Below are positions 2,622 to 57,299 of a DNA stretch of 64,000 nucleotides, piece after piece. The position numbers were made by a program, and so were the translations under genes. The first letter of the stretch is position 1. Each line of letters opens with the position of its first letter. Source of the stretch: a phage; the sequence record PZ445536.1. One strand, given 5' to 3'. The notes under the pieces were generated by a model, which saw only the letters and a program-made list of their open reading frames with translations, made no database searches and was not told the DNA's origin.

Positions 2622-3202
2622 TATTCACCACAGAATTCGTTGATATTTTCCCAATTTAACTTATTCAAGTTTTTCTTAGGAACATTAAACACTTCAATAC
2701 CTGCATTTCGCAGAATATCATCCCAGCCAGGTTTATTCTTATCGTATGTTTCGCAATAAACCAGCTTTTTAATTCCAGATTGAGCTATCGCTTTTGCACA
2801 ATCTGGGCAAGGAGAAAGTGTTACATACATAGTAGCACCTTCAATTGAAGAACCGTTTCGCGCAGCAAACAAAATTGCATTTAGCTCAGCATGAATTTCA
2901 TTTTTAGACGACCATTCAGAGTGAGCGCCGCGATGTTCTTTCGCCAAAACAAAACGATCAGTTGAACCAAACGATACACATTCGGGCTTATGACCTTGAA
3001 TGATAGTATGTTTAGGTTTATTCAGCAACCAACCTTGCTCAGCAGCATAATCACAACAGTTCACACCGCCTGCGGGCGAACCATTATACCCAGTAGAAAT
3101 AATACGTCCATTCTTTTCAATTACTGCTCCTACCTTCCAGGAGCAACATTTGGATTCTTGTGATACTAAATATGCAATTTGAAGTACTGTACTCGCTTTC
3201 AT
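2621..3202 (-). CDS. cd: dCMP deaminase
   Basis: 193 aa; cytidine/deoxycytidylate deaminase zinc motifs HAE...PCxxC (HAELNAI, SPCPDCAKAI); T4 Cd length. Confidence 0.9.
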   Translation of the reverse strand: MKASTVLQIAYLVSQESKCCSWKVGAVIEKNGRIISTGYNGSPAGGVNCCDYAAEQGWLLNKPKHTIIQGHKPECVSFGSTDRFVLAKEHRGAHSEWSSKNEIHAELNAILFAARNGSSIEGATMYVTLSPCPDCAKAIAQSGIKKLVYCETYDKNKPGWDDILRNAGIEVFNVPKKNLNKLNWENINEFCGE

Positions 3203-3537
3203 TTCATAATCACCAGATAAGCAGATTTAGCAGTTTCAACACGATAAATTTCATGACGAAGTTTAGTTATACTTTTAATAACAGAACTAATTATATTCTG
3301 CCCATCTTTAAAGCGGTTTTTCTTATCAATGAAAATTGCACCAGCCATCTTTTTGTGAAGCTCAACTGGATACTTCGTCACAATAATAGCATCATACACA
3401 GAAGGATGAATACTATTCACTAGAGTATCGTTCATTAAAGTTATTCTAATGAACTGTGCTGTTTCAGAATCAAGCGCTCTATGATCGCCAGTATCATTTT
3501 CAAGACAATTATCAATTATATCAGTTAAATTCATCAT
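3199..3537 (-). CDS. hypothetical protein (cd.1-like, 112 aa)
   Basis: ORF overlapping cd start by 4 nt (translational coupling). Confidence 0.6.
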   Translation of the reverse strand: MMNLTDIIDNCLENDTGDHRALDSETAQFIRITLMNDTLVNSIHPSVYDAIIVTKYPVELHKKMAGAIFIDKKNRFKDGQNIISSVIKSITKLRHEIYRVETAKSAYLVIMK

Positions 3538-3770
3538 AGTACGCCATACACCCTTTGTGCTTCAACTAATCCATCAAAATCCAATTTGAGATGTGTTATT
3601 TGGTCACCATCGCCTGGATTCACAATTACTAATACTGAACGAGGAGTTTCGGTAATAACACGAACCGATGTTTCAGGAAATCGTTCAGAAACCTTATTTA
3701 CCAATTCCTGAGCAAATAGTTTAACTTTTTCTTGGAATTCTTTAACAGTAATTGGTTTTTCACTTAGCAT
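3534..3770 (-). CDS. hypothetical protein (78 aa)
   Basis: ORF with GAGGAAA SD; early promoter at 3801-3830. Confidence 0.6.
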   Translation of the reverse strand: MLSEKPITVKEFQEKVKLFAQELVNKVSERFPETSVRVITETPRSVLVIVNPGDGDQITHLKLDFDGLVEAQRVYGVL

Positions 3771-3800
3771 TTCAATTTCCTCATTTATTTTGGTAGAGCT

Positions 3801-3830
3801 ATAATATCACAACTCTACCGTAAAGTAAAC
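3801..3830 (-). promoter_or_regulatory. T4-type early promoter (-35 GTTTAC, 18 bp, -10 TATTAT)
   Basis: rc gtaaac 3825-3830; rc ataata 3801-3806. Confidence 0.5.
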
Positions 3831-3832
3831 TA

Positions 3833-4108
3833 TTAAATTGCTTTGAATTCTGATGTCTGCGATTCAAAACGAATATCGCCTTTAATGACTAGCTCAGCAT
3901 CAAGACCGAATACGACAATGATATGCGCGGAACCTGGATACAGCGTAATGGCGATAGAATCAACCTGGTCTGGAAGCAAAGTGTTCAATACATGAGTCAC
4001 TTGAGCATGAATTCGAAGCTCAGCTGCGTTATCAAGCTTTTCAAACATATTATTAGCGATAATTTGGCTAAACACTACTTCTACGATTTTAGAATAAGTC
4101 GGAAACAT
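3833..4108 (-). CDS. hypothetical protein (91 aa)
   Basis: ORF in cd-pseT interval. Confidence 0.6.
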   Translation of the reverse strand: MFPTYSKIVEVVFSQIIANNMFEKLDNAAELRIHAQVTHVLNTLLPDQVDSIAITLYPGSAHIIVVFGLDAELVIKGDIRFESQTSEFKAI

Positions 4109-8754: not shown

Positions 8755-9933
8755 TTAAAAATATTTTTTAAAACTCATCATAACTTTATCATCAACATCA
8801 TTATCAATCTGTGCAACAAGGTAAGATGACAGTTCTACTTCTTGTGGCGCGGATTGAACATTATCAGAATTAAGATATTCACGAATCCAAGGATATGGAT
8901 GTTTAACCGGAGCATCGATAATTGGGCATGGAAGACCACACTGTTTCATACGAGATACAGTTAAGTAATCAATAAAGCTCCACATGCTATTTGTATTTAA
9001 TCCAGGAACATCGCCATCTTTAAATAAATGAACTGCCCAATCTTTTTCTTGGCGGTTAACTTCCATGAAAATATCAACTGCTTCTTGTTCACACTCTTGA
9101 GCAATTTTAACCCATTCATCGCCATCAGTACCAGATTGAAGTTGACGAATAATATATTGTGTACCTTTAAGATGAAGCTGCTCATCACGTGCAATGAACT
9201 TCATAATCTTTGCATTGCCTTCCATAATTTCCATGTTCTTATGGAAGTTAAAGGTACATGCGAAAGATACATAAAAACGAATAGCTTCCAATGCGTTGAT
9301 TACATGCAAACAGAGGTAAAGAGATTTCATTAGCTCACGCTTCCAATATGTCTCATGCTCAATAGCATCTTCAATAACATCTTCGTCTGCATTAATTTCT
9401 TTTTGGTATTCGATATCAGCTTTAGCGTTTTCCCAATAACGAGTTTTAGTCAGAACATCATCATAATAACGTCCAATGGATTCAGCACGTTTCATAATAG
9501 CTTCATCTAATACAATCTCATCAAATACCTTCGATGGATCAGTATAAAGATTTCGCATGATATGTGTATATGAACGAGAGTGAATAGTTTCACTAAAAGT
9601 CCACGTAGCAACCCATGTATCAAGGCTTGGGTCTGAAATTAATGACATAAGTACAGCAGACGGCGCACGACCCTGAATGCTATCCAAAAGTGATTGATAC
9701 TTCAGATTATTAGTAAAAATATTTTGCTGATACTGAGGAAGCTTATTAAACTGTGCAGCATCCATCATTAAGTTTACTTCTTCAGGACGCCAGAAAAATG
9801 ATAATTGCTTTTCGGTTAAATCTTCAAAAACTTTATGGCGTTGAATATCATAACGCGCAATACCAAGACCTGAACCAAAAAACATAGGTTCTTTTAAAAC
9901 ATCAACTGGATTTGTATTAAAAACTGTGCTCAT
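8755..9933 (-). CDS. nrdB: ribonucleotide reductase small subunit
   Basis: 392-aa uninterrupted ORF; class Ia R2 ferritin-like features; T4 NrdB synteny; no intron. Confidence 0.9.
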   Translation of the reverse strand: MSTVFNTNPVDVLKEPMFFGSGLGIARYDIQRHKVFEDLTEKQLSFFWRPEEVNLMMDAAQFNKLPQYQQNIFTNNLKYQSLLDSIQGRAPSAVLMSLISDPSLDTWVATWTFSETIHSRSYTHIMRNLYTDPSKVFDEIVLDEAIMKRAESIGRYYDDVLTKTRYWENAKADIEYQKEINADEDVIEDAIEHETYWKRELMKSLYLCLHVINALEAIRFYVSFACTFNFHKNMEIMEGNAKIMKFIARDEQLHLKGTQYIIRQLQSGTDGDEWVKIAQECEQEAVDIFMEVNRQEKDWAVHLFKDGDVPGLNTNSMWSFIDYLTVSRMKQCGLPCPIIDAPVKHPYPWIREYLNSDNVQSAPQEVELSSYLVAQIDNDVDDKVMMSFKKYF

Positions 9934-12806: not shown

Positions 12807-13667
12807 TTATACCGCCATTTTTCCTTTAATTGGCAGATGAGATACATAGTTGTTAAGAACAAAATTATGAGGCTTTGCAAATTGACTCAACCAAAATACC
12901 TGCGATTCTGTGTCCCATTCATCAAATTCATCTGGAAATTTTAATTGTAATTCGCATAAATCCATAGGTTCACGACGCAAAATTTCTTTACATTGTTCTA
13001 CGTGATTCATATAGATATGAGTATTACCACCAGAAAATATCAAATCTCCCGGAATAAGATTACACATCTTAGCTACAATATGAACTAACGTAGCATATGA
13101 TGCAATATTAAATGGAAGACCGAGGAAAACATCTACCGAACGTTGATACCACTGCAAATCTAAATAGCCATTACGCACATTAAACTGATAGAACATATGA
13201 CAAGGAGGTAATGCCATATATTTAAGTTCAGCTGGATTCCACGCAGAAACAATTTGACGCCTATCATTTGGCAGTTTTTTAATACGATCAACAACTTCTA
13301 TAATTTGGTCTACACCGCCAAAATCACGCCACTGTTTTCCATAAATTGGACCAAGTTCACCGCTATGGTATCCTAAATCTTTTGCCTGATTTTCGTAATT
13401 TTCATCCCAAACTGTTTTGCCTTGGATTAACGAATCGTGTTGAATTAATCGTAAATCATTAACATTTGTGCTTCCTGATAAAAACCATATTAGCTCAGCA
13501 ATGCATGCATTCCAGGCGAGCTTCTTAGTTGTTACTGCAGGAAAACCTTTGGTTAAATCCCAACGCAATTTAGTACCGAACAGAGCAATTGTTCCTGTGC
13601 CCGTTCGGTCATCGGTTTCATAGCCATTTTCAAAAATGTCTTTAATTAAATCTTGGTATTGTTTCAT
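12807..13667 (-). CDS. td: thymidylate synthase (intron-less)
   Basis: 286 aa (T4 Td length) as one continuous ORF; catalytic LPPCH motif. Confidence 0.92.
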   Translation of the reverse strand: MKQYQDLIKDIFENGYETDDRTGTGTIALFGTKLRWDLTKGFPAVTTKKLAWNACIAELIWFLSGSTNVNDLRLIQHDSLIQGKTVWDENYENQAKDLGYHSGELGPIYGKQWRDFGGVDQIIEVVDRIKKLPNDRRQIVSAWNPAELKYMALPPCHMFYQFNVRNGYLDLQWYQRSVDVFLGLPFNIASYATLVHIVAKMCNLIPGDLIFSGGNTHIYMNHVEQCKEILRREPMDLCELQLKFPDEFDEWDTESQVFWLSQFAKPHNFVLNNYVSHLPIKGKMAV

Positions 13668-16207: not shown

Positions 16208-16232
16208 TGTTTTGTGAAAAAAATTTTTGAAA

Positions 16233-16260
16233 TAAAAAAAGGGGACCTCTAGGGTCCCCC
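16233..16260 (-). terminator. Rho-independent terminator downstream of gene 32
   Basis: GGGGGACCCUAGAGGUCCCC hairpin followed by U7 on - strand. Confidence 0.75.
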
Positions 16261-23434: not shown

Positions 23435-24550
23435 ATGGAAAAATTTATGGCAGAGTTTGGACAAGGATATGTCCAAACGCCATTTTTATCGGAAAGCAAT
23501 TCAGTAAGATACAAAATAAGTATAGCGGGTTCTTGCCCGCTTTCTACTGCAGGGCCATACGTTAAATTTCAAGATAATCCTGTAGGAAGTCAAACATTTA
23601 GCGCAGGTCTTCATTTAAGAGTTTTTGACCCTTCCACAGGAGCATTAGTTGATAGTAAGTCATATGCTTTTTCGACTTCAAATGATACTACATCAGCTGC
23701 TTTTGTTAGTTTCATGAATTCTTTGACGAATAATCGAATTGTTGCTATATTAACTAGTGGAAAGGTTAATTTTCCTCCTGAAGTAGTATCTTGGTTAAGA
23801 ACCGCCGGAACGTCTGCTTTTCCATCTGATTCTATATTGTCAAGATTCGACGTATCATATGCTGCTTTTTATACTTCTTCTAAAAGAGCTATCGCATTAG
23901 AGCATGTTAAATTAAGTAATAGAAAAAGCACAGATGATTATCAAACTATTTTAGATGTTGTATTTGACAGTTTAGAAGACGTCGGAGCTACCGGGTTTCC
24001 AAGAAGAACGTATGAAAGCGTTGAGCAATTCATGTCAGCGGTTGGTGGAACTAATAACGAAATTGCGCGTCTACCAACTTCAGCTACTATAAGTAAATTA
24101 TCTGATTATAATTTAATTCCTGGCGATGTTCTTTATCTTAAAGCCCAGTTATATGCTGATGCCGATTTACTTGCTCTTGGAACTACGAATATATCCATTC
24201 GATTTTATAATGCATCGAACGGATATATTTCCTCGACACAAGCTGAGTTTACTGGACGGGCTGGGTCTTGGGAATTAAAAGAAGACTATGTAGTTGTTCC
24301 AGAAAACGCTGTAGGATTTACGATATACGCACAAAGAACTGCACAAGCTGGCCAAGGTGGCATGAGGAATTTAAGCTTTTCTGAGGTATCAAGAAATGGC
24401 GGTATTTCAAAACCTGCTGAATTTGGCGTCAATGGTATTCGTGTTAATTATATCTGTGAATCTGCTTCACCTCCGGATATAATGGTACTTCCTACGCAAG
24501 CATCGTCTAAAACTGGTAAAGTGTTTGGGCAAGAATTTAGAGAAGTTTAA
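23435..24550 (+). CDS. 35: gp35 long tail fiber hinge connector
   Basis: 371 aa, position between 34 and 36. Confidence 0.9.
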   Translation: MEKFMAEFGQGYVQTPFLSESNSVRYKISIAGSCPLSTAGPYVKFQDNPVGSQTFSAGLHLRVFDPSTGALVDSKSYAFSTSNDTTSAAFVSFMNSLTNNRIVAILTSGKVNFPPEVVSWLRTAGTSAFPSDSILSRFDVSYAAFYTSSKRAIALEHVKLSNRKSTDDYQTILDVVFDSLEDVGATGFPRRTYESVEQFMSAVGGTNNEIARLPTSATISKLSDYNLIPGDVLYLKAQLYADADLLALGTTNISIRFYNASNGYISSTQAEFTGRAGSWELKEDYVVVPENAVGFTIYAQRTAQAGQGGMRNLSFSEVSRNGGISKPAEFGVNGIRVNYICESASPPDIMVLPTQASSKTGKVFGQEFREV

Positions 24551-24555
24551 ATTGA

Positions 24556-24580
24556 GGGAGCCTTCGGGTTCCCTTTTTCT
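24556..24580 (+). terminator. Rho-independent terminator after gene 35 (UUCG tetraloop)
   Basis: GGGAGCC-UUCG-GGUUCCC hairpin then UUUUUCUUU. Confidence 0.65.
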
Positions 24581-24581
24581 T

Positions 24582-24589
24582 TATAAATA
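24582..24589 (+). promoter_or_regulatory. late promoter TATAAATA for gene 36
   Basis: Exact consensus about 24 nt upstream of the gene 36 ATG. Confidence 0.7.
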
Positions 24590-24612
24590 CTATTAAAATA
24601 AAGGGGCATACA

Positions 24613-25278
24613 ATGGCTGATTTAAAAGTAGGTTCAACAACTGGAGGCTCTGTCATTTGGCATCAAGGAAATTTTCCATTGAATCCAGCCGGTGACGATG
24701 TACTCTATAAATCATTTAAAATATATTCAGAATATAACAAACCACAAGCTGCAGATAACGATTTCGTTTCTAAAGCTAACGGTGGTACTTATGCATCAAA
24801 GGTAACATTTAATGCTGGTGTTCAAGTACCATATGCTATAAACAATACAAACCAAAGTGGTATTTATCCTGGTAATGGAGATGCAGCTACTTTTGTTACA
24901 GCAAATATTGATATTGTTTCATGGTATGGTATTGGTTTTAAATCATCACAGGGTTCAGCAGCCAGAACTGTAGTAATCAATACACGTAATGGTGATATTA
25001 GTACAAAAGGCGTTGTATCCGCTGCAGGTCAAGTAAGAAGTGATGCAGCTGCTCCTATAGCAGCGAATGACCTTACTAGAAAGGACTATGTTGATGGAGC
25101 AATAAATACTGTTACAGCAAATGCAAACTCTAGAGTGTTACGATCTGGTGACACTATGACGGGAAACTTAACCGCACCAAACTTTTTCTCGCAGAATCCT
25201 GCATCTCAACCTTCACATGTTCCACGATTTGACCAAATCGTAATTAAGGATTCTGTTCAAGATTTCGGCTATTATTAA
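24613..25278 (+). CDS. 36: gp36 long tail fiber distal connector
   Basis: 221 aa (T4 gp36 length). Confidence 0.9.
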
Positions 25279-25286
25279 GAGGACTT

Positions 25287-28200
25287 ATGGCTACTTTAAA
25301 ACAAATACAATTTAAAAGAAGCAAAACCGCAGGTGCACGTCCTGCTGCTTCAGTATTAGCCGAAGGTGAATTGGCTATAAACTTAAAAGATAGAACAATT
25401 TTTACTAAAGATGATTCAGGAAATATCATTGATTTAAGCATTTCCGCTGGCGGTAATATCAGTGGAAATGTAACTATTGATGGAACTTTACGCGTCAATG
25501 GACCAATAAACAATTTTGGAAATTTTTCCACAAGTGGCCAGATTACCGCTGGTAGTAGTATTTCAGCTCAAGTTTTTAGAGCATTGCAAGGTTCGTTTTA
25601 TACAAGAGCATCAAATGATGTCTCAAATGCCCATTTATGGTTTGAAAATGCCGATGGCACTGAACGAGGTGTTATATATGCTCGTCCTCAAACTACAACT
25701 GACGGTGAAATACGCCTTAGGGTTAGACAAGGAACAGGAAGCACCATTAATAGCGAATTCTATTTCCGTTCTATAAACGGCGGTGAATTTCAAGCCAATC
25801 GTATTTTAGCATCAGATTCGTTAGTAACAAAACGCATTGCAGCTGATACAGTTATTCACGGTGGCAAAGCCTTTGGTGTATATGATACGGATTCATTAGT
25901 TAACTACGTATACCCAGGCACCGGTGAAACTAACGGAGTAAACTATCTTCGTAAAGTTCGCGCTAAATCAGGCGGTACCATATGGCATGAGCTTTGTACT
26001 GCTCAATCAGGCCAAGCTGATGAAATGTCTTGGTGGACCGGTTCTACTCCTATTTCAAAACAATTTGGTATTCGTCATGACGGTCGGATGATTGTCCGCA
26101 ATAGTCTTGCATTAGGCACTATGACTACTGATTTTCCATCGAGCGATTATGGTAATGGTGGCGCATTAGGATTCGGTGCTTATTTGGCTCTAGGTGATAA
26201 CGGAACTGGTTTACGCTATCAAAAAACCGGTGTTTATGATTTAGTTGGTTCCGGATTGTCTGTTGCATCTATTACTCCAGATAGTTTCCGTAGTACTCGT
26301 AAAGCATTATTTGGACGTTCAGAAGACCAAGGCACCACATGGATTATGCCTGGAACGAACGCTGCATTTTTATCAGTTCAAACACAGGCTGATGAAAACA
26401 CTGCTGGAGACGGCCAGACGCATATTGGCTATAACTCAGGCGGAAAAATGAACCACTATTTCCGTGGTAAAGGCAAAACTAATATTAATACTCAGGAAGG
26501 TATGGAAGTTAATCCGGGTATTTTGAAATTGGTAACTGGCTCTAATAATGTAATGTTTTATGCTGATGGCGGTATTACATCTGTTAAGCAGCTTTCAATA
26601 TATAATGGCATATATTTAGCAGCTAATAATTCTACTGCTGGGCTAACATTCGCTCCAACTACTACAGTTGATGGTACTAAGCAAATTTTGTGGGAAGGCG
26701 GTACTCGTGCTGGGCAGAATAAAAGCTATGTAACTGTTAAAGCGTGGGGTAATTCATTTAACGCATCTGGCGATCGTTCCCGTGAAACAGTTTTTGAGGT
26801 AGGTGATGGGCAAGGTTACCATTTTTATTCTCAACGTGTAGCTCCTGCGCCTGGTTCGACTGTCGGGCCTATTCAACTCCGAGTTGATGGTGGTTTATTA
26901 ACTTCAGGTAGTATTGTTGCTTCTGGTTCTATTACAACCGAATCTTCTTTGAGTGTTAATAATGGCATGTCAGTAAACGGACAAGCTAAATTCGGTGGAA
27001 CTGCTGATGCATTAAGAATTTGGAATGCCGAATACGGTGCTATTTTCCGTCGCTCAGAAACAGCATTACATATTATCCCGACTCCCAAAGATGCCGGTGA
27101 AAGTGGTGGAATAAGTAATCTCCGCCCACTTAGTATTAGTCTTAATAATGGTATGGTACAAATGCGCCATTCTGTTACGTTAGGCGATGATGGCGCTGGC
27201 GGTAATATGATTACTGTGGACAACGATACCAAACTTGTTGTTGTTACTAGTAATAGTCGCATTTCTCCTAATTACCGTATGCAGGTAGGACAAGCAGCTT
27301 ATATTGATGCTGAATGTACTGACACAGTTCGCCCGGCTGGTGCAGGGTCTTTTGCTTCACAAAATAATGAAAACGTTCGTGCTCCATTCTATATGAATAT
27401 TAATCGCACAGATACAAGTACTTACGTTCCTATTTTGAAACAGCGATATGTCCAAGGAAACAGTTGTTATTCTCTGGGAACTCTAATTAACGGCGGTAAC
27501 TTCAGAGTTCATTATCATGAAGGCGGCGATGGCGGTTCGACTGGCGCTATTATAAAGGATTTAGGTTGGGAATTTACCAAAAATGGTGATTTTATATCTC
27601 CTAAGCGTGTTTCTGCTGGGGGTTCAGTTTATTTAGGTACAGACGGCAATATTACAGGTGGTTCTGGCAATTTTGCTAATTTAAACAGTACAATTGAATC
27701 ACTTAAAACCGATATTGTATCGAGTTACCCAATCGGTGCTCCTATTCCATGGCCAACGGATACTCCTCCTGACGGTTACGCTATTATGGAAGGCCAGACT
27801 TTTGATAAGTCTGCATACCCAAAATTGGCTATGGCTTACCCATCTGGCGTAATTCCAGATATGCGCGGGCAAACTATTAAAGGTAAACCAAGTGGTCGAG
27901 CTGTATTAAGCGCAGAAGCCGATGGTGTTAAGGCTCATAGCCATAGTGCATCGGCTTCAAGTACTGACTTGGGTACTAAAACTACGTCGAGTTTTGATTA
28001 TGGTACTAAGACGACAAGTAGCTTTGACTATGGCACTAAGACTAGCAATACCACAGGTAACCACTCTCATACTGTAAGCGGTACTACGAGTTCTGCTGGT
28101 GCACACCAACATGCGCGCTCAGGTCCTCAGTTACAAGCCGGCATACCCAATAACATATTCTATGACGGATATAATAGTGTAGGTGCAAACGCCAACGCTA

Positions 28201-28481
28201 AAATCACCGGATCTGTGAGCGGTGCTACTGCAGGGTCGAATATAGCCAAAACTTCTTCAGACGGTGCTCATACCCATACTTGGTCTGGTACTACAAGCAC
28301 TACAGGTAACCATGCTCACACAGTAGGTATTGGTGCTCATACCCATACTGTAGGTATCGGTGCTCATACCCACACGGTAGCAATTGGCTCGCATGGTCAT
28401 ACTATCACTGTAAATAGTACAGGTAATACAGAAAACACGGTTAAAAACATCGCTTTTAACTATATCGTTCGTTTAGCATAA
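25287..28481 (+). CDS. 37: gp37 long tail fiber distal subunit (receptor-binding tip with His-box)
   Basis: 1064 aa; C-terminal HxH repeats ([36 protein letters not shown]) typical of the T4-type gp37 needle; shares VFEVGD..HFYSQR box with gp34. Confidence 0.9.
27972..28031 (+). repeat. tandem 30-nt coding repeat ([10 protein letters not shown] x2, partial third) in gp37
   Basis: Direct repeat read from sequence with synonymous differences. Confidence 0.75.
28323..28403 (+). repeat. tandem 27-nt coding repeat x3 (VGIGAHTHT His-box units) in gp37
   Basis: gtaggtattggtgctcatacccatact repeated with 2-3 substitutions. Confidence 0.8.
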
Positions 28482-28486
28482 GGAGA

Positions 28487-28500
28487 GGGGCTTCGGCCCC
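28487..28500 (+). other. stem-loop GGGGC-UUCG-GCCCC between genes 37 and 38
   Basis: 5-bp G/C stem with UUCG loop; weak U-tail, likely a processing/stability hairpin rather than a strong terminator. Confidence 0.45.
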
Positions 28501-28508
28501 TTCTGAAT

Positions 28509-29060
28509 ATGAAAATATATCATTATTATTTTGACACTAAAGAATTTTACAAAGAAGAAAATTACAAACCGGTTAAAGGACTCGGTCTTCCTGCTCATTC
28601 AACAATTAAAAAACCTTTAGAACCTAAAGAAGGATACGCAGTTGTATTTGATGAACGTACTCAAGATTGGATTTATGAAGAAGACCATCGCGGCAAACGA
28701 GCATGGACTTTTAATAAAGAAGAAATTTTTATAAGTGACATTGGAAGCCCGGTTGGTATAACCTTTGATGAGCCCGGCGAATTTGATATATGGACTGATG
28801 ACGGTTGGAAAGAAGACGAAACATATAAACGCGTTTTAATTCGCAATAGAAAAATTGAAGAATTATACAAAGAATTCCAAGTTTTAAATAATATGATTGA
28901 AGCTTCTGTCGCGAATAAAAAGGAAAAATTCTATTATAAAAACCTTAAGCGGTTCTTTGCTCTTTTAGAAAAGCATGAGCATTTAGGTGGTGAATTCCCT
29001 TCATGGCCTGAAAAAGAACGGAAACCTTGGTATAAGCGTTTATTCAAGCATTACGTATAA
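28509..29060 (+). CDS. 38: gp38 tail fiber assembly chaperone (T4-type)
   Basis: 183 aa (T4 gp38 length), immediately downstream of 37. Confidence 0.88.
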   Translation: MKIYHYYFDTKEFYKEENYKPVKGLGLPAHSTIKKPLEPKEGYAVVFDERTQDWIYEEDHRGKRAWTFNKEEIFISDIGSPVGITFDEPGEFDIWTDDGWKEDETYKRVLIRNRKIEELYKEFQVLNNMIEASVANKKEKFYYKNLKRFFALLEKHEHLGGEFPSWPEKERKPWYKRLFKHYV

Positions 29061-32536: not shown

Positions 32537-32555
32537 CGTTTTGTGAAAAAATTTT

Positions 32556-32585
32556 AAAATAAAAAGGGAGAGCCTCGGCTCTCCC
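32556..32585 (-). terminator. Rho-independent terminator downstream of gene 52 region
   Basis: GGGAGAGCC-GA-GGCUCUCCC hairpin followed by UUUUUAUUUU on - strand. Confidence 0.7.
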
Positions 32586-32736
32586 TAAAATTACTGCATG
32601 ACAGTTATCACAGTCATGATAACACGTTGAATTCCGAACGCAAGAAGACCTCCTGCTATGGCTGGAACAACGCCTAAACCCGCCAGTAAAATGCCGCCAG
32701 ATACTAATGCTGCGCTTGTAATACCTATAAATGGAC

Positions 32737-35675: not shown

Positions 35676-35861
35676 AACTTTTTTTAAAAATATTCGTAAT
35701 AAATGTGAATACCAACTACTACCGCTGAAACTTGCACAGCCCACCACGCACAAGCAATAAGTACAGAATTCAAAATTTTCATAATAACCTCATCACAAAA
35801 GTAAATGTTAAACAAATTACTGGAATACTAATTAACCAAACAAAACACCACCATAATGAAC

Positions 35862-36189: not shown

Positions 36190-36205
36190 CGTTTTGTGAA
36201 AATTT

Positions 36206-36849: not shown

Positions 36850-37044
36850 TTACTTGAATTGTGCAATTCTTTTCTCTAGACATTCAGCGTAAGATTTCAT
36901 TGAGATGAACTGTGAAAGTAGCAGTTCTTGCTCAACTGCGTTAACTGTTAGAAACTTTGCGCTTTCTAAAAATTTGCTCAGTGCATTAATTTTGAGCATT
37001 AATTGATCGTATTCTTCTTTTACTCGTGCTTGATAACCTAACAT
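36850..37044 (-). CDS. hypothetical protein (64 aa)
   Basis: ORF between rIIB and denB with AAGGAAAATTATG RBS. Confidence 0.55.
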   Translation of the reverse strand: MLGYQARVKEEYDQLMLKINALSKFLESAKFLTVNAVEQELLLSQFISMKSYAECLEKRIAQFK

Positions 37045-37072: not shown

Positions 37073-38010
37073 TTATTTAAATTGTTCAGTAACGTCTTCA
37101 ACTACTTCGTATTGGCAGGTACGCATTTTAGCATCGTTGTAATCAATCGGAATTGATACTACATCACGCGGATGTACTTTAACTTTTACGACTCGGCTGG
37201 TTGAACTGCCAAAGTGACGAATATAAGATTTAGAACACACATGCAGACCACGAGAACAAGTTTGTGTATCATCGTCATTCACACGAGTACGTGGCATTTT
37301 AACTACTTTACCCGGACTGTTATCAAAGGTGTTTGAGTGACAGTCAAAGTAATTGCTGCGAACTACTTTCCAAGCATAGAAGTAACCATCTTCTGTAATT
37401 TCAATATCGTTTGCTACCAAGAAATCAAAGAGTCGAGATACCGCTTTTTGGCTTGGGTTTTCCAGCAGATTTTCCAAGAACGGAAAATAAAATTCAAAGT
37501 TTTCGCCTTTTTCCATCGAATCAAGAATACGATCAACTAAACCAGACCGCAATTCAATATTTTGATAGAACAAGCTTCCACCTTCAATTCGAACATCGCC
37601 GGAAATATATTTTTCAACAGCGCGACGAACATTAATTTTTGTGCAGCTTCTTCCAGCTTATCTGTTACAAGCAGATTAAGAATTTCCTGGAAGTTTGAAT
37701 GAGTATTAGGAGTTGCGTTATAAGTTACACCCTCAACAGTAATTGAAATGAATTTTTTAGATGCATTCCAAATAATGTCAGATTTAGCAACTGGAGCAAT
37801 AACTGCATCGCTATTAACTTTAACTGTAATATCACCACTAATAGTAACTTTAGGGCGTTTAGCTTCTTCAGCATTTTTCAAAACACGACGGATTGTGTCA
37901 ACCGATACATCCTTCCAATAAGCTAATTCCTGCTGAGTGTAATTACCACTTGAATACAGTTTAACAATTTCAGCTTGTTCGTTTTTGGTCAGGCATTTAA
38001 TATTGTACAT
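37073..38010 (-). pseudogene. rIIB: rIIB, split by an apparent -1 frameshift in an A5 run (two ORFs 37537..38010 and 37073..37573)
   Basis: N-terminal ORF begins MYNIKCLTKNEQAEIVKLYSSGNYTQQELA (rIIB); reading frame shifts after ...LEEAAQK at coding-strand CAAAAATTAATG (+ strand T-run 37636-37640); restoring one A gives a continuous ~312-aa protein (...AAQKINVRRAVEKYISGDVRIEGGSLFYQNIELRSGLV...). Confidence 0.8.
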
Positions 38011-38021
38011 AATTTTCCTTA

Positions 38022-40199
38022 TTAGGCCGCAAGGGCCTTCATAGTTTTAGCGATTTGGGAAACTTCATCATCACTTAAAGAGTTGCGATAACCGATGAAG
38101 TCGGAAACAATACGGAATTTCTTGGTAAACTCAGCAACCATTTTATCACTATTTTTTGAAGCATTACGTGATAATTCATCAAAAAGATTAGTTACCGTCC
38201 AGATGTCATGACCGATGGTATCTTTTCCACCATTAAAATATACACCGCGCAATGAACTAACTATATTAGCGAGTCGTGTATATTCTTCAGAAACTTCATC
38301 TGTACTGAAGTACTTCATCATAAAATCTAGTTCAGGATACTTGATAATTTTATCAATATATCGTTGAGCTGAACTTGAATAACCTACATACTTATCATAA
38401 TCTACATCATCAAAAGCATCTACATATAAATCACGCAAAGCTTCAAAAATACATTGGCACTGACCGAGTTCTTTTACCTTTTTCTGTAAAAGCGGACGAA
38501 TAACATAAAATTCATTAATGCCAATAAGATTAGCCATACGAATCAAAATATTCATAGATGGATGACAAAGTGATGTAGTACCATCCATAGAGAAAATATC
38601 AGAACGATGCATATACGCTACATAACCAGTAATTTCATCTGCTTCTGACGTAAGTGTAAATAATTCCTCTTTTTCCCAACGCCCATCTTTAATTTCAAAC
38701 TTAAATGCTGTAGCAGCTTTAGGACGAGGAGCTTTACTTTTAACTACCTTTGGAATATAGCTTTTAACTAAAGCTTCAATTTCTGACAAATAATGAATGT
38801 TAACTTCATCACTTTCAAACATTGCCATAATATCAGGTAGTAAATCAATCTGCGATTCTACTTCCGGATTAATAAACAGAAGACGCTCATTGTGATGAAT
38901 ATTTAAAGTGTTATTAAATTCACTATCATCTAGCGCATGTGCTAATCCACGGACAATATTAACACGATTTTTAATATTATCAATAACGATATTAATTTTT
39001 GTTGTATTAATACCAAACAGACGATAACTTGACGCAACGACTGATGTTTCATGACTTTGCTTAATGCGCTTCAGTCGAGGGTCAAGATTTACTTCATACA
39101 CAACTCCTGCATTACATAACTTACTGTCAGGTTCAAACATGCTCTGCATTTTCTTATATGACAGATTTTTAGTCGTGAATTTGACTGAATTACTAATCAT
39201 ATAATCTCGAGCAGAATACCCCATCTTCATCAATTCACGATATGTGTGACGAGGAGATGTAGATTCTTTAAATCGTTTTACATCTTCATTAAATGCTTTC
39301 TCACTAAGCTCTTTAACTCGTTCAATAATATTTTTACGAGTGCGATCATCTAATGAAAGAGCTTCACGTGATGGAGCAATATCAAGTGAACCCATTGGAA
39401 ATTTAATGTAATTCACTTCATTACGAATGCTTAGCCAGTTACGGTCTCTAATAACACCATCGATAGGATAAACAATACCACCATAGATAGCATATAATCC
39501 ACCACGATCAGGCCAGTATCTTTCTGGATTTACACCGTAATAGTCATCAAAATCCGGAAAATAATCAATTTCGCGGTCAAGACCATTAATGATAGCCAAA
39601 TCTTTGAACGGTCGCATGATATAAGAAACTTCATAAGCAAAGTTTCTAAAGTCTTTTTCTTCAACTGGAACTACGATTTCAATACCAGTTTTATCATCTG
39701 GACCCATTTCTTTCACGAATGTAGGTTTAATTTGTGGACCATCGCCATCCATGTAAGCTACATAACCACGAATTTCACCTTTATGATACGAAGTAATACT
39801 AAACGTATCAGTATAACTAAACGGAGATTTAGAACCTAAACCAAATCCGCCAATAAAGTCATTAGATTCAGCCTTAGATAAACTGAAGTATGAATTATAC
39901 AAACCAGGAGAATTATCATCACCCTGAATATCAAAATCACTCATACCCGGACCAAAATCTCGGCAAACAAATCGTGGATCTAAACGTCCAGGAACTTGAA
40001 TGATAAATTTTTCAGGATTTCCATTGAGAGCATGGGCATCAATCATGTTGGTAATCAATTCACGGACTACTGCGCGAATTTTGTTTGTATACAAATCAGA
40101 TGACAGAATTTTAAATACTTTAGGATTTGCTGCGATGCTAAATGCTTTTGATTTAGAACCATTGCCAAGAATAGTTTCTTTTTCAGTGGTGATAATCAT
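38022..40199 (-). CDS. rIIA: rIIA (membrane-associated GHKL-type ATPase-like protein)
   Basis: 725 aa (T4 RIIA length); N-terminal ATPase-like motifs; rIIA-rIIB junction TAATAAGGAAAATTATG. Confidence 0.92.
38024..38038 (-). other. stem-loop AGGCC-GCAAG-GGCCU at 3' end of rIIA coding sequence, just upstream of rIIB RBS
   Basis: Read from sequence. Confidence 0.35.
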
Positions 40200-40438: not shown

Positions 40439-40468
40439 ATTATACCACATCCTTGTGGTAAAGTAAAC
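40439..40468 (-). promoter_or_regulatory. T4-type early promoter (GTTTAC, 18 bp, TATAAT)
   Basis: rc gtaaac 40463-40468 overlapping gene 39 stop; rc attata 40439-40444. Confidence 0.6.
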
Positions 40469-42285
40469 TACTGGCTCATCCATTCTTTACGAAGGTCAGC
40501 ATTATCTCCCATGAGCATTTCAAAAAGCTCTTTCCAATTCTCAGGAAGTTTAACAACATCATATACTGGATTTTGAATCATCTCACGATATTCAGATTTT
40601 TCCAAAGAGCCAAGTCCTTTAATATAACGGATGCTATGTTTAGGTAGAGCATCTTTGGCACTCTCATATTCAGCGACTGTATAAAACCATTCTTGTTTTT
40701 TACCGACCTGAGCGATGATTACAGGAGTTTTGACGAAGCGAATTCGTCCTTGCTCAAACAATTCTGGCCAATTACTAAAAAATCCGAGCAGAGAAGGATA
40801 AATGCTTCCTAGACCATCATGGTCAGCATCAGTCATAATAGCAATATTGCGATAATTCAAGTTTTCAGCTTTTTCACCAAGAACTAATCCAGTGATTGCG
40901 CAAATATCAAATAGCTCTTTGTTTTTAAGCATATCTGCATAAGACATACCCCAACTGTTGAGAACTTTACCGCGCAATGGATAACCACCATGAAGTTCTT
41001 TATCACGAACATCAATAAGATATCCGATAGCCGAATCACCCTCAGTCAAGAAAAGAGTAGTATCAGCATCTTTACCACAAAGATTCGCTTTGATATGTTT
41101 ATGAACCTTAGCTTTAGAAGCCTTTTTAGCTGCTTTAGTTTCTGCTGCTTTTTCTGCCGCCAATTTACGAGCCAAAGCAGCTTCGATAATCGGCATTAGA
41201 ATTGCTTCATTATTTAGAATAGCGCGTGAAATCTTTTTAGCATCAAGCTGAATATGACTACGAATTTCGCCAAATGGAGAAGTCAAACGCTCTTTAGTTT
41301 GAGAATCAAATCGCATGTTTTTCATATCACGGACAAACATAACGATAGTCAAACATTCTTTAACGCGTGCTTTAGTCACATCAATTTTGAACTTACGTTT
41401 GATTTGTGGAATAAGGTCTTCACAAATATCATCCATAACACAGTCAATGTGATGGCCACCATTCTTAGTATGAATGTTATTGACGTATGTTAATTGACGA
41501 AAACCATCCGGTGAACGACCAACCGCAATAGAACAATTTTCTTGTTCTTGAACGATAGCATGCTCATCATATTGGCGTGCATATTTCTTAAAATTGCCCT
41601 GAACCTTTTTACCATTAAAGGTAAATTGAATATCAGGATAAACTACTGCAAGTGTCTGGAGACGATCTAGTGTAATGTCAAGATAAACCTGAGATAGCTC
41701 ATTAGTTTCAAATGACATAAAATCAGGAATGAAAGTAACACTGGTTCCTTTCCATTTTCCAGGAATAGTTTCCCAGGATTTATTTTCCATGCCATTTGAA
41801 CAACGAACTACAATATTATTTTGACCATCGCCAGTTTCACCGACAAACATCACAGAAAAAATGTTAGTTAAACTAGAACCAACACCATTCATACCACCGG
41901 TGACGCGTTCTTTATCATCACCAAAGTTACCACCTGCTTTTGGAATAGTCCATGCAGCAACAGGACCAGGAATTTCTTCACCGGTAGGTGTTTTAACCAT
42001 CGCTTGTGGAATACCGCGACCGTTATCTTCAACTGTTACTTGATTGTTTTTAATAGTAACATTAATTTTATTTGCGAATTTAAACTTAGTACGAATACCT
42101 TCATCTACTGAGTTATCGATAATTTCATCAATAAGCTTAACAAGACCAGGTACATACTGAACACTTTCCCATTTACCAAACAGAAAGCGCTCATGCATTT
42201 CATTAGCTGAAGAGCCAATGTACATGCCGCTACGCTTTTTGATATGTTCAATATCGCTCAGAATTTTAATTTCATTCTTAATCAT
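40468..42285 (-). CDS. 39: gp39 topoisomerase II large subunit (GyrB-like), uninterrupted 39+60-type ORF
   Basis: 605 aa from ATG at 42285; GHKL ATPase and Toprim features; no split into genes 39 and 60. Confidence 0.9.
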   Translation of the reverse strand: MIKNEIKILSDIEHIKKRSGMYIGSSANEMHERFLFGKWESVQYVPGLVKLIDEIIDNSVDEGIRTKFKFANKINVTIKNNQVTVEDNGRGIPQAMVKTPTGEEIPGPVAAWTIPKAGGNFGDDKERVTGGMNGVGSSLTNIFSVMFVGETGDGQNNIVVRCSNGMENKSWETIPGKWKGTSVTFIPDFMSFETNELSQVYLDITLDRLQTLAVVYPDIQFTFNGKKVQGNFKKYARQYDEHAIVQEQENCSIAVGRSPDGFRQLTYVNNIHTKNGGHHIDCVMDDICEDLIPQIKRKFKIDVTKARVKECLTIVMFVRDMKNMRFDSQTKERLTSPFGEIRSHIQLDAKKISRAILNNEAILMPIIEAALARKLAAEKAAETKAAKKASKAKVHKHIKANLCGKDADTTLFLTEGDSAIGYLIDVRDKELHGGYPLRGKVLNSWGMSYADMLKNKELFDICAITGLVLGEKAENLNYRNIAIMTDADHDGLGSIYPSLLGFFSNWPELFEQGRIRFVKTPVIIAQVGKKQEWFYTVAEYESAKDALPKHSIRYIKGLGSLEKSEYREMIQNPVYDVVKLPENWKELFEMLMGDNADLRKEWMSQ

Positions 42286-42312
42286 CACTTATCCTCGTTT
42301 GGTTTCGGGAAT

Positions 42313-49932: not shown

Positions 49933-50535
49933 TTATAGATTAAATCCTTCAAAATCAAGAGTATAGATAGTATATGTTGAATACTTTTTATACTCATATC
50001 TATCTGCAATTCTAAATACACTTCCAGCTGGTATCATTACTTCTTGTTCATCTGAAACTAATTCCATATTACGATAACGATGGCTATCCGGAAACTTAAA
50101 GTTTGGATTGTATTCTTTACAGCGTAGAGCTTTTATAGCATACTCCTGGAAATTGAATACCATAGGAGCTTTGAATTCAAAAATAACCTGTGTGTTATAC
50201 TCTAAACCGGAAGCAAAATGTAGAGCTATATTTTTATCATATGAAGCTGATACTACTTTATCAAATGTAATAATATCAATTCCTTGATTTAATATTTGTT
50301 TAGTCTCGACTGGAACACCTCTCCAAAGAGGTTTATCGTTTGGAACCAAACGAGATTTGATTATTTCATTTAACCAAGTATGGTCATCTGGCTTATTAGT
50401 AATACAATGAATTAAAAGTTCAATTTCAGATAAATTAAACCCTTCAGAAAGTAATTCTTCACGAATAGAAGCACGCACCGATGCATCCATTGATTTTATT
50501 TTAAAATCTTTTAGTTGCATTACTGAGTATTTCAT
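49933..50535 (-). CDS. modA: ModA ADP-ribosyltransferase
   Basis: 200 aa (T4 ModA length); R-S-E ART motifs (LWRG, VVSAS, EQEVMIP). Confidence 0.8.
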   Translation of the reverse strand: MKYSVMQLKDFKIKSMDASVRASIREELLSEGFNLSEIELLIHCITNKPDDHTWLNEIIKSRLVPNDKPLWRGVPVETKQILNQGIDIITFDKVVSASYDKNIALHFASGLEYNTQVIFEFKAPMVFNFQEYAIKALRCKEYNPNFKFPDSHRYRNMELVSDEQEVMIPAGSVFRIADRYEYKKYSTYTIYTLDFEGFNL

Positions 50536-51157
50536 TCAACTACCTCAATATCATAAACTTTAAATGTTCCAAATGAATCGTGTAATTTTTCTTTTGAAAT
50601 AGAAGTTATTCTATACTTTCCAATTGGAATCATCCATTCTTGTTCACGCACAATCATCATTAAGTTATCAGTACGCTCTGAATCTAGCCCATCAGTATCT
50701 TCATACGTGTACTTGAACTCAGTATTAGGAGAAGAAAGTATAATATCGCTGATATGGTCAGAATAATTAAAAGCTTTATCAGTTTTTAAGCGAAGTATTA
50801 TTTTAGTAAAATATTCAGCATAAGAAAAAGAACATGCTGTGAGTAAACTAGTAGTAAATGAATCTACTCTGTTCGTTGAAAACACTTCTCCAACTTGTAA
50901 ATCTTTTTAATAAGTTCTTCTGTTGATTTTGATATACCACGATATAGCTGATAAGGTGATTTAGTTAAATGCTTTTTAATGATTTTATTCAATTGCCGAT
51001 GAAGAGCTTCATTCTTTTTAGCTTCCATACATTGCCAAAGAACAGACTGCTCAAAATCAGTAAATTTTTCACAGACCTTTTTATACATATCATATTGAAA
51101 ATCGACGCTTTCAGCTTTTATAGATAACTGTTCAACATCTGCAAGATTAATAATCAT
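50532..51157 (-). pseudogene. modB: ModB ADP-ribosyltransferase, split by an apparent -1 frameshift in an A5 run (ORFs 50864..51157 and 50532..50885)
   Basis: N-terminal ORF carries the R motif (QLYRGISKS) and ends at 50864; overlapping ORF carries STS-like (VFSTN) and catalytic EQEWMIP motifs; coding-strand run ATTAAAAAGATT (+ strand T5 50904-50908); one extra A would give a continuous ~207-aa protein. Confidence 0.6.
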
Positions 51158-56059: not shown

Positions 56060-56368
56060 CGCAGTAATATTTTCTGCATCATTTAGCAAATCATTAATTT
56101 CATCAGATAGCATAACACATGTACCTTTATTTCCCGTAATTGTTACTGCGCAATTACGAACGTTTTCTTTATTAAATTTTAAGTTAATATTTTCGTAATG
56201 AAAATCCTTTAATGCTGAATATATTTTTAAAATAAAACTGTCTTTTACTACAATAAACCCAACCTCACTATTAAAACGTGGTTCATGGAAACTGTAATAA
56301 ACCTTTTCATCTATAAAATCGTATGAAATTTTTTCCATTTTTAAATATGAAAATTCAGAACTATACAT
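56012..56368 (-). CDS. hypothetical protein, 61-41 interval paralog 1 (118 aa)
   Basis: C-terminus SIDDQIFNAFMNRG shared with next ORF; GFIVVKD core. Confidence 0.6.
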   Translation of the reverse strand: MYSSEFSYLKMEKISYDFIDEKVYYSFHEPRFNSEVGFIVVKDSFILKIYSALKDFHYENINLKFNKENVRNCAVTITGNKGTCVMLSDEINDLLNDAENITAPSIDDQIFNAFMNRG

Positions 56369-56417
56369 ATTAACCTTTATTCATAAAAGCATTAAAAATT
56401 TGATCGTCAATAGAAAC
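56366..56417 (-). repeat. 52-nt duplicated gene-end cassette (copy 2)
   Basis: See 56008-56059. Confidence 0.7.
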
Positions 56418-56786
56418 TTTTACTTTAGGCTGTTCTTCAAACGGTAATTCATATCCACATATTACAATTTTGTGATCGATACCAAAATACACAGAAGCAA
56501 TATGATTAATGATGTTTTCAGTAAAGTCTAAATTAACATCAATATCTTTTTGACCACAGCCCAAAGGATAAATAATGCGAGTAATTCGATTATCTTTAAC
56601 AAATATTCCACCGACATACTCTGTGCTGCGTTTAAAGTTTACACGTTTCCTAAATGAAAAATATTCAGGTTCTTTATGGGCTCGACTCATAGGGCTTAAA
56701 GTGTATTCCGAATATGAAATATCAAATCCTACACCTTCAATATGAGCCAAAGTGTCATGATTAAACCAATTATAATCGTATGCCAA
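56370..56786 (-). CDS. hypothetical protein, paralog 2 (138 aa)
   Basis: GGIFVKDNRITRIIYP core and SIDDQIFNAFMNKG C-terminus. Confidence 0.6.
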   Translation of the reverse strand: MAYDYNWFNHDTLAHIEGVGFDISYSEYTLSPMSRAHKEPEYFSFRKRVNFKRSTEYVGGIFVKDNRITRIIYPLGCGQKDIDVNLDFTENIINHIASVYFGIDHKIVICGYELPFEEQPKVKVSIDDQIFNAFMNKG

Positions 56787-57004
56787 ATATCCATTAAATT
56801 GTAATATGTGAAAGGCACCGGATTAACATCATATGTTGTACCTTTAAAATCTGCCCAGGCAACGATTTCGTTATCTTTAACAATTACAAAAATTGTGCCA
56901 ATAAGATATCCACGGTTATTTTCATCAGGCGTTATATTATAACATTGTGCATCAGGAAATTTACCGTATTTAAACGGTGGATTTTTGTGCATATAATAAA
57001 TCAT
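56729..57004 (-). CDS. hypothetical protein, truncated paralog 3 (91 aa)
   Basis: GTIFVIVKDNEIVA core similar to paralogs 1-2 but lacks the shared C-terminus; overlaps next ORF by 58 nt. Confidence 0.45.
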   Translation of the reverse strand: MIYYMHKNPPFKYGKFPDAQCYNITPDENNRGYLIGTIFVIVKDNEIVAWADFKGTTYDVNPVPFTYYNLMDIWHTIIIGLIMTLWLILKV

Positions 57005-57005
57005 A

Positions 57006-57299
57006 TTATTCGCCTGTGATTTCGGTTACGATATTTTTGTTATTAAAGTTTTTATCGCAATACAGAACATAATTATACTGCATTACACCACCAGACTTAA
57101 GTTGTTTTTGCACTTCAGCTTTCATTTCAGGACGATCGCGCTCAACGATATTCATAATATCCGCTTCAATTTGAGTTTCAACTTCAGTCTGATCTGCAGT
57201 CATAGACCATTCACACAAATCTTTATCATATCCTGCCATAGCAGGCTGAGCAGCACAAGAAGCCAAAGTAAAAATTGTAGCAAAAATAAATTTTTTCAT
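57006..57299 (-). CDS. putative lipoprotein (97 aa)
   Basis: Signal peptide with lipobox LASC. Confidence 0.6.
   Translation of the reverse strand: MKKFIFATIFTLASCAAQPAMAGYDKDLCEWSMTADQTEVETQIEADIMNIVERDRPEMKAEVQKQLKSGGVMQYNYVLYCDKNFNNKNIVTEITGE

Follow-up and report, generated by a model that had tools for sequence, protein, structure and literature searches.

Loss of one A from a conserved six-A tract splits rIIB in a T4-like phage genome, probably through a recent mutation

RESULTS

The rII locus lies in a mosaic segment of a T4-like genome

The whole stretch of DNA analyzed here, 64 kb in length and called the window below, comes from the genome of a T4-like phage (genus Tequatrovirus). 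It runs collinear with T4 between about gene 30.7 and the beginning of gene 43, a span that takes in the tail-fiber genes, rIIB and rIIA. The window is a mosaic: T4, Ec_O157kw and ESh18 are each roughly 95 to 98% identical to it, and short stretches are ~100% identical to one or other of these relatives. No entry identical to the window was found in the phage record collection, in which the best match reached 99.1% over rIIB and ~96 to 97% over 24 kb. Exact-protein look-ups likewise returned no entry for the 157-aa ORF at the rIIB start or for the 725-aa rIIA product. The mosaic joints are sharp, since the gp37/gp38 tail-fiber tip region (window 27000 to 29000) is 99.9 to 100% identical to Shigella phage ESh18 and the sp-61.2 region (window 56300 to 57100) is identical to Ec_O157kw, with the adjoining kilobases only 90 to 97% identical to ESh18 or Ec_O157kw.

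Several T4-specific insertions are missing from the window. Relative to T4, ~600 nt are absent at window ~9257 to 9260, the position of the T4 nrdB intron (I-TevIII), and ~1017 nt at window 13118 to 13119, the position of the T4 td intron (I-TevI), and it appears that nrdB and td of the window phage carry no introns. The topoisomerase large subunit (window 40468 to 42288, minus strand) is encoded by one 606-aa open reading frame (ORF) without the T4-specific gene 39/60 split, the mobA insertion or the 50-nt translational bypass element, and it is likewise unsplit in Ec_O157kw, ESh18 and vB_Eco_EH2 (EH2).

In the rII region, rIIB lies directly downstream of rIIA (rIIB start at 38010) and upstream of denB.1 and denB, which is the gene order of T4. 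The features of this locus are as follows.

36850 to 37044: denB.1 homolog, flanking rIIB
37073 to 38010, minus strand: rIIB, frameshifted, a pseudogene as written (938 nt versus 939 nt)
37073 to 37635, minus strand: native-frame remainder of rIIB, residues 126 to 312, cut off from the start codon and holding the conserved C-terminal domain
37537 to 38010, minus strand: ORF translated from the rIIB start, 157 aa, made of 125 native and 32 out-of-frame residues
37636 to 37640, minus strand: A5 tract (T5 on the plus strand), the site of the 1-nt deletion; A6 at rIIB nt 371 to 376 of 939 in relatives
37753 to 37758, minus strand: second rIIB A6 tract (nt 253 to 258), intact
38022 to 40199, minus strand: rIIA, intact, 725 aa, with its own A6 tract (nt 2043 to 2048, window 38152 to 38157) also intact

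One missing A takes rIIB out of frame

The minus-strand rIIB gene runs from an ATG at 38010 to 38008 to a TAA at 37075 to 37073. Reading from the start codon yields native RIIB residues 1 to 125, up to LEEAAQK, then 32 residues in the wrong frame (LMFVALLKNIFPAMFELKVEACSIKILNCGLV), and ends on a TAG at 37537 to 37539. When the window was searched with T4 RIIB by tblastn, residues 1 to 126 aligned on 38010 to 37633, and residues 122 to 312 aligned on 37648 to 37076 in another frame. Adding one A gave an uninterrupted 312-aa protein, which is identical to T4 RIIB at 307/312 positions and, along its residues 1 to 312, hits phrog_609 ("RIIB lysis inhibitor"; E = 2e-109).

The original prediction, that rIIB is split by a 1-nt loss in an A5 run at 37636 to 37640 and that one extra A would restore a protein of ~312 residues, is confirmed by the nucleotide alignments, the two-frame tblastn match and the repaired translation. 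It had also proposed a comparison with rIIB of the closest relatives, and nucleotide alignments with T4, QOTSP, NR1, Ec_O157kw and ESh18 all place an A6 at this site; the whole difference is one column, the flanks of the run match the relatives, and there is no other change nearby. The break site was thus correctly placed, with the refinement that A6 is the wild-type length. The frame is indeed lost after LEEAAQK, but the stop does not fall right there, as the prediction had it, because the ORF runs on for 32 shifted codons.

The conserved C-terminal domain of RIIB (~166 to 310), which is the part common to all RIIB PHROG families, lies wholly downstream of the break, and the matches to phrog_36818, phrog_3803, phrog_11221 and phrog_2886 are confined to the 37073 to 37635 part. 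Since Lys125 is the last residue translated in the native frame and only 32 more codons follow it, the C-terminal domain is not made. As written, the ORF from the start codon has only 157 codons versus the ~312 of the family and the C-terminal domain sits in another frame; judged by its reading frames, this rIIB is a null or near-null allele. In the native-frame remainder, the first canonical start is a TTG at 37573, and an ATG (M166) lies further downstream. One small family, phrog_36818 (163 positions), begins at Met166 and looks as though it had been built from C-terminal fragments of split rIIB genes. A Pfam search of RIIB matched no RIIB model and returned one weak match, a helix-turn-helix at residues 7 to 44 (HTH_7, E = 2.8e-4) that misses the curated cutoff; the RIIB family PF26926 (Phage_T4_rIIB) is known here from precomputed annotations. 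No solved structure was found for RIIB.

The age of the lesion can be read from the part of the gene that it disconnects. Downstream of the break there are 11 nucleotide differences from T4, yet residues 126 to 312 are identical to the T4 protein, and all five amino-acid differences from T4 RIIB lie upstream of the break. Because the downstream frame has not drifted, the lesion is very recent, or not real. An unchanged downstream protein fits a very recent mutation and an artifact equally well.

The A5 allele is rare among relatives

The A6 state is also found in T2, T6 and about 480 records. By querying with 53 nt of DNA, we recovered an ungapped A5 form from 1/346 records, namely, EH2; a DNA query with T4-type flanks gave an ungapped A5 in 0/140 records. 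Because a short A5 megablast query also pulled A6 records with a gap, its matches were scored by identity bands and alignment spans. A tblastn search with the 34-aa junction peptide was cleaner for A5 detection, and it matched in a single piece in 1/262 records, again EH2; in the remaining 261 its two parts matched separately, each in its own frame. The frequency of A5 among deposited genomes is therefore about 1 in 260 to 480. An exact-pattern scan of IMG/VR gave four A6 contigs and no A5 or A7, and a protein-based search for the rIIB locus gave eight loci, all intact; these four contigs and eight loci are too few to yield an A5 frequency outside cultured phages.

Other public sequences carry the same or different rIIB lesions

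The identical A6-to-A5 change is present in EH2 (OZ034684.1), 10 single-nucleotide polymorphisms (SNPs) from the window within rIIB, and in a Logan contig of 9.5 kb (run ERR13298094), 30 SNPs from the window within rIIB; the three sequences differ mutually by 10 to 30 SNPs in this gene. It seems probable from these distances that the A5 allele has recurred independently in separate genetic backgrounds, and a recurrent artifact would look alike.

EH2 resembles the window in the tract change itself and in its first ORF, which is equally 474 nt including the stop (157 aa); its record annotates the split rIIB as two hypothetical proteins. By the 10 SNPs within rIIB, however, EH2 is a different phage, and whereas rIIA of the window is intact, rIIA of EH2 carries two further -1 deletions, one at nt 1690 (a run of four T cut to three) and one in the rIIA A6 at 2043 to 2048. 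Gene 61.2 is absent altogether from EH2, while the window has a frameshifted copy. No other T4-homologous gene of EH2 is broken in 49 kb. All three EH2 lesions fall within 3 kb of rII (EH2 24100 to 27224), a pattern that suggests relaxed selection on a function the phage can do without and not random read error.

Different rIIB knock-outs were also found in public assemblies. In ENA ERZ28646692 scaffold_13, a 170.5-kb metagenome scaffold, rIIB (3001 to 3939) has a CGA-to-TGA nonsense change at codon 141; a BYEP01 cluster of 20 NCBI sequences has a +1 rIIB frameshift near codon 191; and another public T4-like assembly has a -1 rIIB frameshift near codon 183. These different knock-outs argue that real rIIB loss does occur, and to judge from the assemblies it is evidently no rarity in the T4-like phages sequenced so far.

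Two other genes of the window are frameshifted, by a different kind of lesion

By scanning the window with all ORFs of four relatives, we found no broken gene other than rIIB and the following two.

50532 to 51157, minus strand: modB (ADP-ribosyltransferase), frameshifted by an insertion at ~50904 to 50908; ORFs of 97 aa (50864 to 51157) and 117 aa (50532 to 50885)
56370 to 57004, minus strand: gene 61.2/adfA, frameshifted by a tandem AT duplication (+2) at 56789 to 56790

In modB, a 2-nt insertion private to the window changes ATT AAA GAT to ATT AAA AAG AT and so turns an A3 run into A5; among the best 40 relatives, modB is intact and 2 nt shorter in 40/40. The AT duplication in gene 61.2, which the Ec_O157kw annotation calls "anti-DarT factor A," is private to the window as well, in surroundings that are otherwise 799/799 identical to Ec_O157kw. 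All three broken genes are nonessential accessory genes of host interaction; no essential gene is broken, and the replication, nucleotide-metabolism and tail-fiber genes are unhit. An apparent stop at codon 5 of cd.5 was dismissed, since the annotated start in Ec_O157kw is a downstream Met.

Homopolymer runs of length 5, 6 and 7 number 340, 60 and 4 in the window. We compared the runs of at least 5 that have matched flanks in a relative, and their length was the same in 167/168 against T4, 197/202 against Ec_O157kw and 123/125 against ESh18. All discrepancies of this audit are intergenic, and every compared run of at least 5 in coding DNA, rIIB excepted, equals that of the relatives. The intergenic differences, at 32546 to 32591, 35679 to 35685, 36199 to 36203 and 16223 to 16260, fall in promoter- or terminator-like A/T runs such as TGTGAAAAAATTTTAAAAT, and they look like natural polymorphism.

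According to these comparisons, the claim that modB shows the same type of lesion as rIIB is refuted: modB has a +2 insertion in an A3 run and not a 1-nt miscount. The argument for a systematic artifact that the original prediction built on this likeness fails with it, since the lesions of modB and 61.2 are both +2 and the coding homopolymers agree with those of the relatives. Most of the sequence is coding, and a platform prone to such errors would have left them there too, so we see no systematic homopolymer error here. The pair of options that the prediction offered, a genuine rII frameshift mutant or a homopolymer error at this site, was nevertheless the right one.

DISCUSSION

A genuine mutation or a dropped base

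We consider it probable that the sequenced phage stock carries a genuine, very recent loss-of-function mutation in rIIB. Under this explanation, one A:T pair would have been lost from the conserved A6 at rIIB nt 371 to 376, presumably by replication slippage (Streisinger strand misalignment), the classical origin of the rII frameshift hotspot mutants. From T4 genetics, such a phage is predicted to show rII behavior, with rapid lysis on E. coli B-type hosts and failure to grow under RexAB-type exclusion (lambda lysogens), and to revert from A5 to A6 at high frequency. By analogy, it may also escape defense systems that sense RIIB. Where the host makes rII dispensable, mutants in rIIB would easily become fixed as a phage is plaque purified or serially passaged. 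The T6 example gives such alleles a plausible selective setting, since rIIB-null T6 is viable and is selected by a CARD/gasdermin defense system (PMC10312443). The genuine-mutation reading is also favored by the listing of tract 371 to 376 among length-variable repeats and by the fast reversion of an engineered +1 in the rIIA A6 (bioRxiv 10.1101/2025.10.21.683753).

The main rival is that the phage has A6, that the consensus dropped one A, and that rIIB is intact and functional. We hold this to be possible but on the whole rather unlikely. On several platforms no class of sequence is more prone to error than a 6-nt homopolymer, and consensus errors of 1 nt typically fall in runs of this length. 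The 187 codons downstream of the break are perfectly conserved in the protein, as they would be in an intact gene, and A5 is rare among deposited genomes; its presence in EH2 and in the Logan contig could be an artifact that recurs at the tract. Two more frameshifted genes could also mean that the assembly is imperfect, three per 64 kb being many for a clean wild isolate. However, their +2 insertions have a form atypical of sequencing errors, and all the other compared coding runs of at least 5 have the length seen in relatives. In addition, the A5 of EH2 is accompanied by two rIIA frameshifts while its other T4-homologous genes over 49 kb are intact, and since such clustering in rII is unexpected from random read errors, it supports biology. 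The lack of a systematic homopolymer problem, the recurrence of A5 in apparently independent backgrounds and the classical hotspot type of the A6 site together tilt the balance toward a real mutation.

Reversible switching and residual expression as less likely readings

A further reading is compatible with the genuine-mutation explanation and adds to it selection for mutability. It takes the A6 as a maintained contingency locus, at which rIIB is switched on and off as a bet-hedge between hosts with RexAB-type exclusion and hosts with RIIB-sensing defenses, with the window caught in the off phase. If so, T-even-like phage populations would harbor a fraction in a reversible rIIB-off state, able to escape RIIB-sensing defenses such as the CARD/gasdermin type at the cost of RexAB sensitivity. 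The window, EH2 and the Logan contig would then represent off-phase clones that became fixed because the hosts used for isolation favored them. The occurrence of the off allele in three backgrounds is suggestive. Contingency behavior has been demonstrated for the A6 of rIIA, where an engineered +1 reverts ~10,000 times faster than a point mutant, and tract 371 to 376 of rIIB is among the length-variable repeats of T2, T4 and T6 (bioRxiv 10.1101/2025.10.21.683753). The trade-off of rIIB-null phages is also documented: rIIB-null T6 is viable, is selected by a Lysobacter CARD/gasdermin defense system and is RexAB sensitive (PMC10312443). However, the part of the preprint that gives read counts for the rIIB tract reports it as almost invariant, with variation in 1/2072 reads for T2, 0/1321 for T4 and 0/1396 for T6 (bioRxiv 10.1101/2025.10.21.683753). 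The off allele is rare, and RIIB homologs at 51% identity have only A5 runs in place of any A6, so the A6 is not conserved outside the genus and we see no sign that it is maintained for mutability. Selection for mutability is in any case unneeded if, as we assume, the codons CAA AAA ATT are favored in an AT-rich genome. Taken together, we regard a maintained switch at this tract as unlikely.

It is very improbable that the A5 state is still productively expressed, whether by -1 tRNA-Lys slippage on CAAAAAT, by transcriptional slippage, or as two halves that function as separate chains after a restart at TTG 37573 or ATG M166. If tRNA-Lys slipped once by -1 on the A5, the exact native sequence (QK followed by INVRR) would be regenerated; TTG 37573 has an SD-like GAAGGTGGA close upstream; and the C-terminal halves of other split rIIB genes have been called as separate ORFs. 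Against these points, 261/262 relatives have an in-frame A6, so the out-of-frame arrangement is not conserved; the zero frame lacks a canonical X XXY YYZ heptamer; and the 111-nt segment that begins a little ahead of the tract and ends at the premature stop has a minimum free energy of -22.8 kcal/mol, which does not improve on shuffled versions (mean, -21.96; z = -0.25). A programmed frameshift was rejected on this conservation and folding. Unstimulated slippage usually yields a few per cent at most, and a restart product would lack residues 126 to 146 or 126 to 165. The sequence may still allow native RIIB at a low level through -1 slippage, or a product restarted at TTG 37573 or Met166.

What the lesion means for the phage

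Whichever reading holds, this kind of lesion has been known since the 1960s, and the value of the case is practical, in the annotation and the predicted phenotype of the phage. The gene is best flagged as a frameshifted rIIB pseudogene, or its base call corrected where the reads call for it, and not annotated as two hypothetical proteins as in EH2. If real, an rIIB-null genotype predicts failure on lambda or RexAB hosts, altered lysis timing, possible escape from RIIB-triggered defense and frequent revertants, which is relevant to host-range work, therapy and defense-system screens that use the phage. The window would then offer a modern natural-isolate case of the textbook rII slippage frameshift and one data point for the idea of a reversible switch; it opens no new question.

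Comparison with known rII mutants and switches

The two great spontaneous hotspots of rII, r131 in the A cistron and r117 in the B cistron, are both A6-type runs, and r117 is presumably one of the two rIIB A6 tracts, 253 to 258 or 371 to 376. The rIIB site of the window shows the features of a slippage hotspot, namely, a six-A:T wild-type run, the loss of a single unit and recurrence at the same site. The sequence AAAAAA is reported for the rII hotspot of Benzer, with slipped mispairing as the explanation (PMC11603525, which cites Pribnow et al. 1981 and Streisinger et al. 1966). The rII A6 tracts of T2, T4 and T6 are rIIA 2043 to 2048 and rIIB 253 to 258 and 371 to 376 of 939 (supplement of bioRxiv 10.1101/2025.10.21.683753). 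The window therefore resembles the spontaneous T4 hotspot mutants of Benzer (1961), Pribnow and Streisinger in the gene pair, in the six-A wild-type motif and in the one A:T pair lost, at a tract that is present in T4, and by analogy the same null, revertible phenotype would be expected. It differs in that those were selected laboratory mutants, whereas the window is a genome sequence of a non-T4 Tequatrovirus.

Two other systems are close to this one. With the contingency loci described by Gomez, Barrick & Waters (bioRxiv 10.1101/2025.10.21.683753), the rIIB site shares a homopolymer of at least 6, an accessory gene of T-even phages and a frame that +/-1 changes would switch off and on; the difference is that a switching rate was shown there for the rIIA A6, whereas the rIIB tract is known here as sequence. 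The T6 rIIB-null escape mutants (PMC10312443) likewise carry an early rIIB frameshift or nonsense change in a viable, RexAB-sensitized phage; those mutants, however, were deliberately selected.
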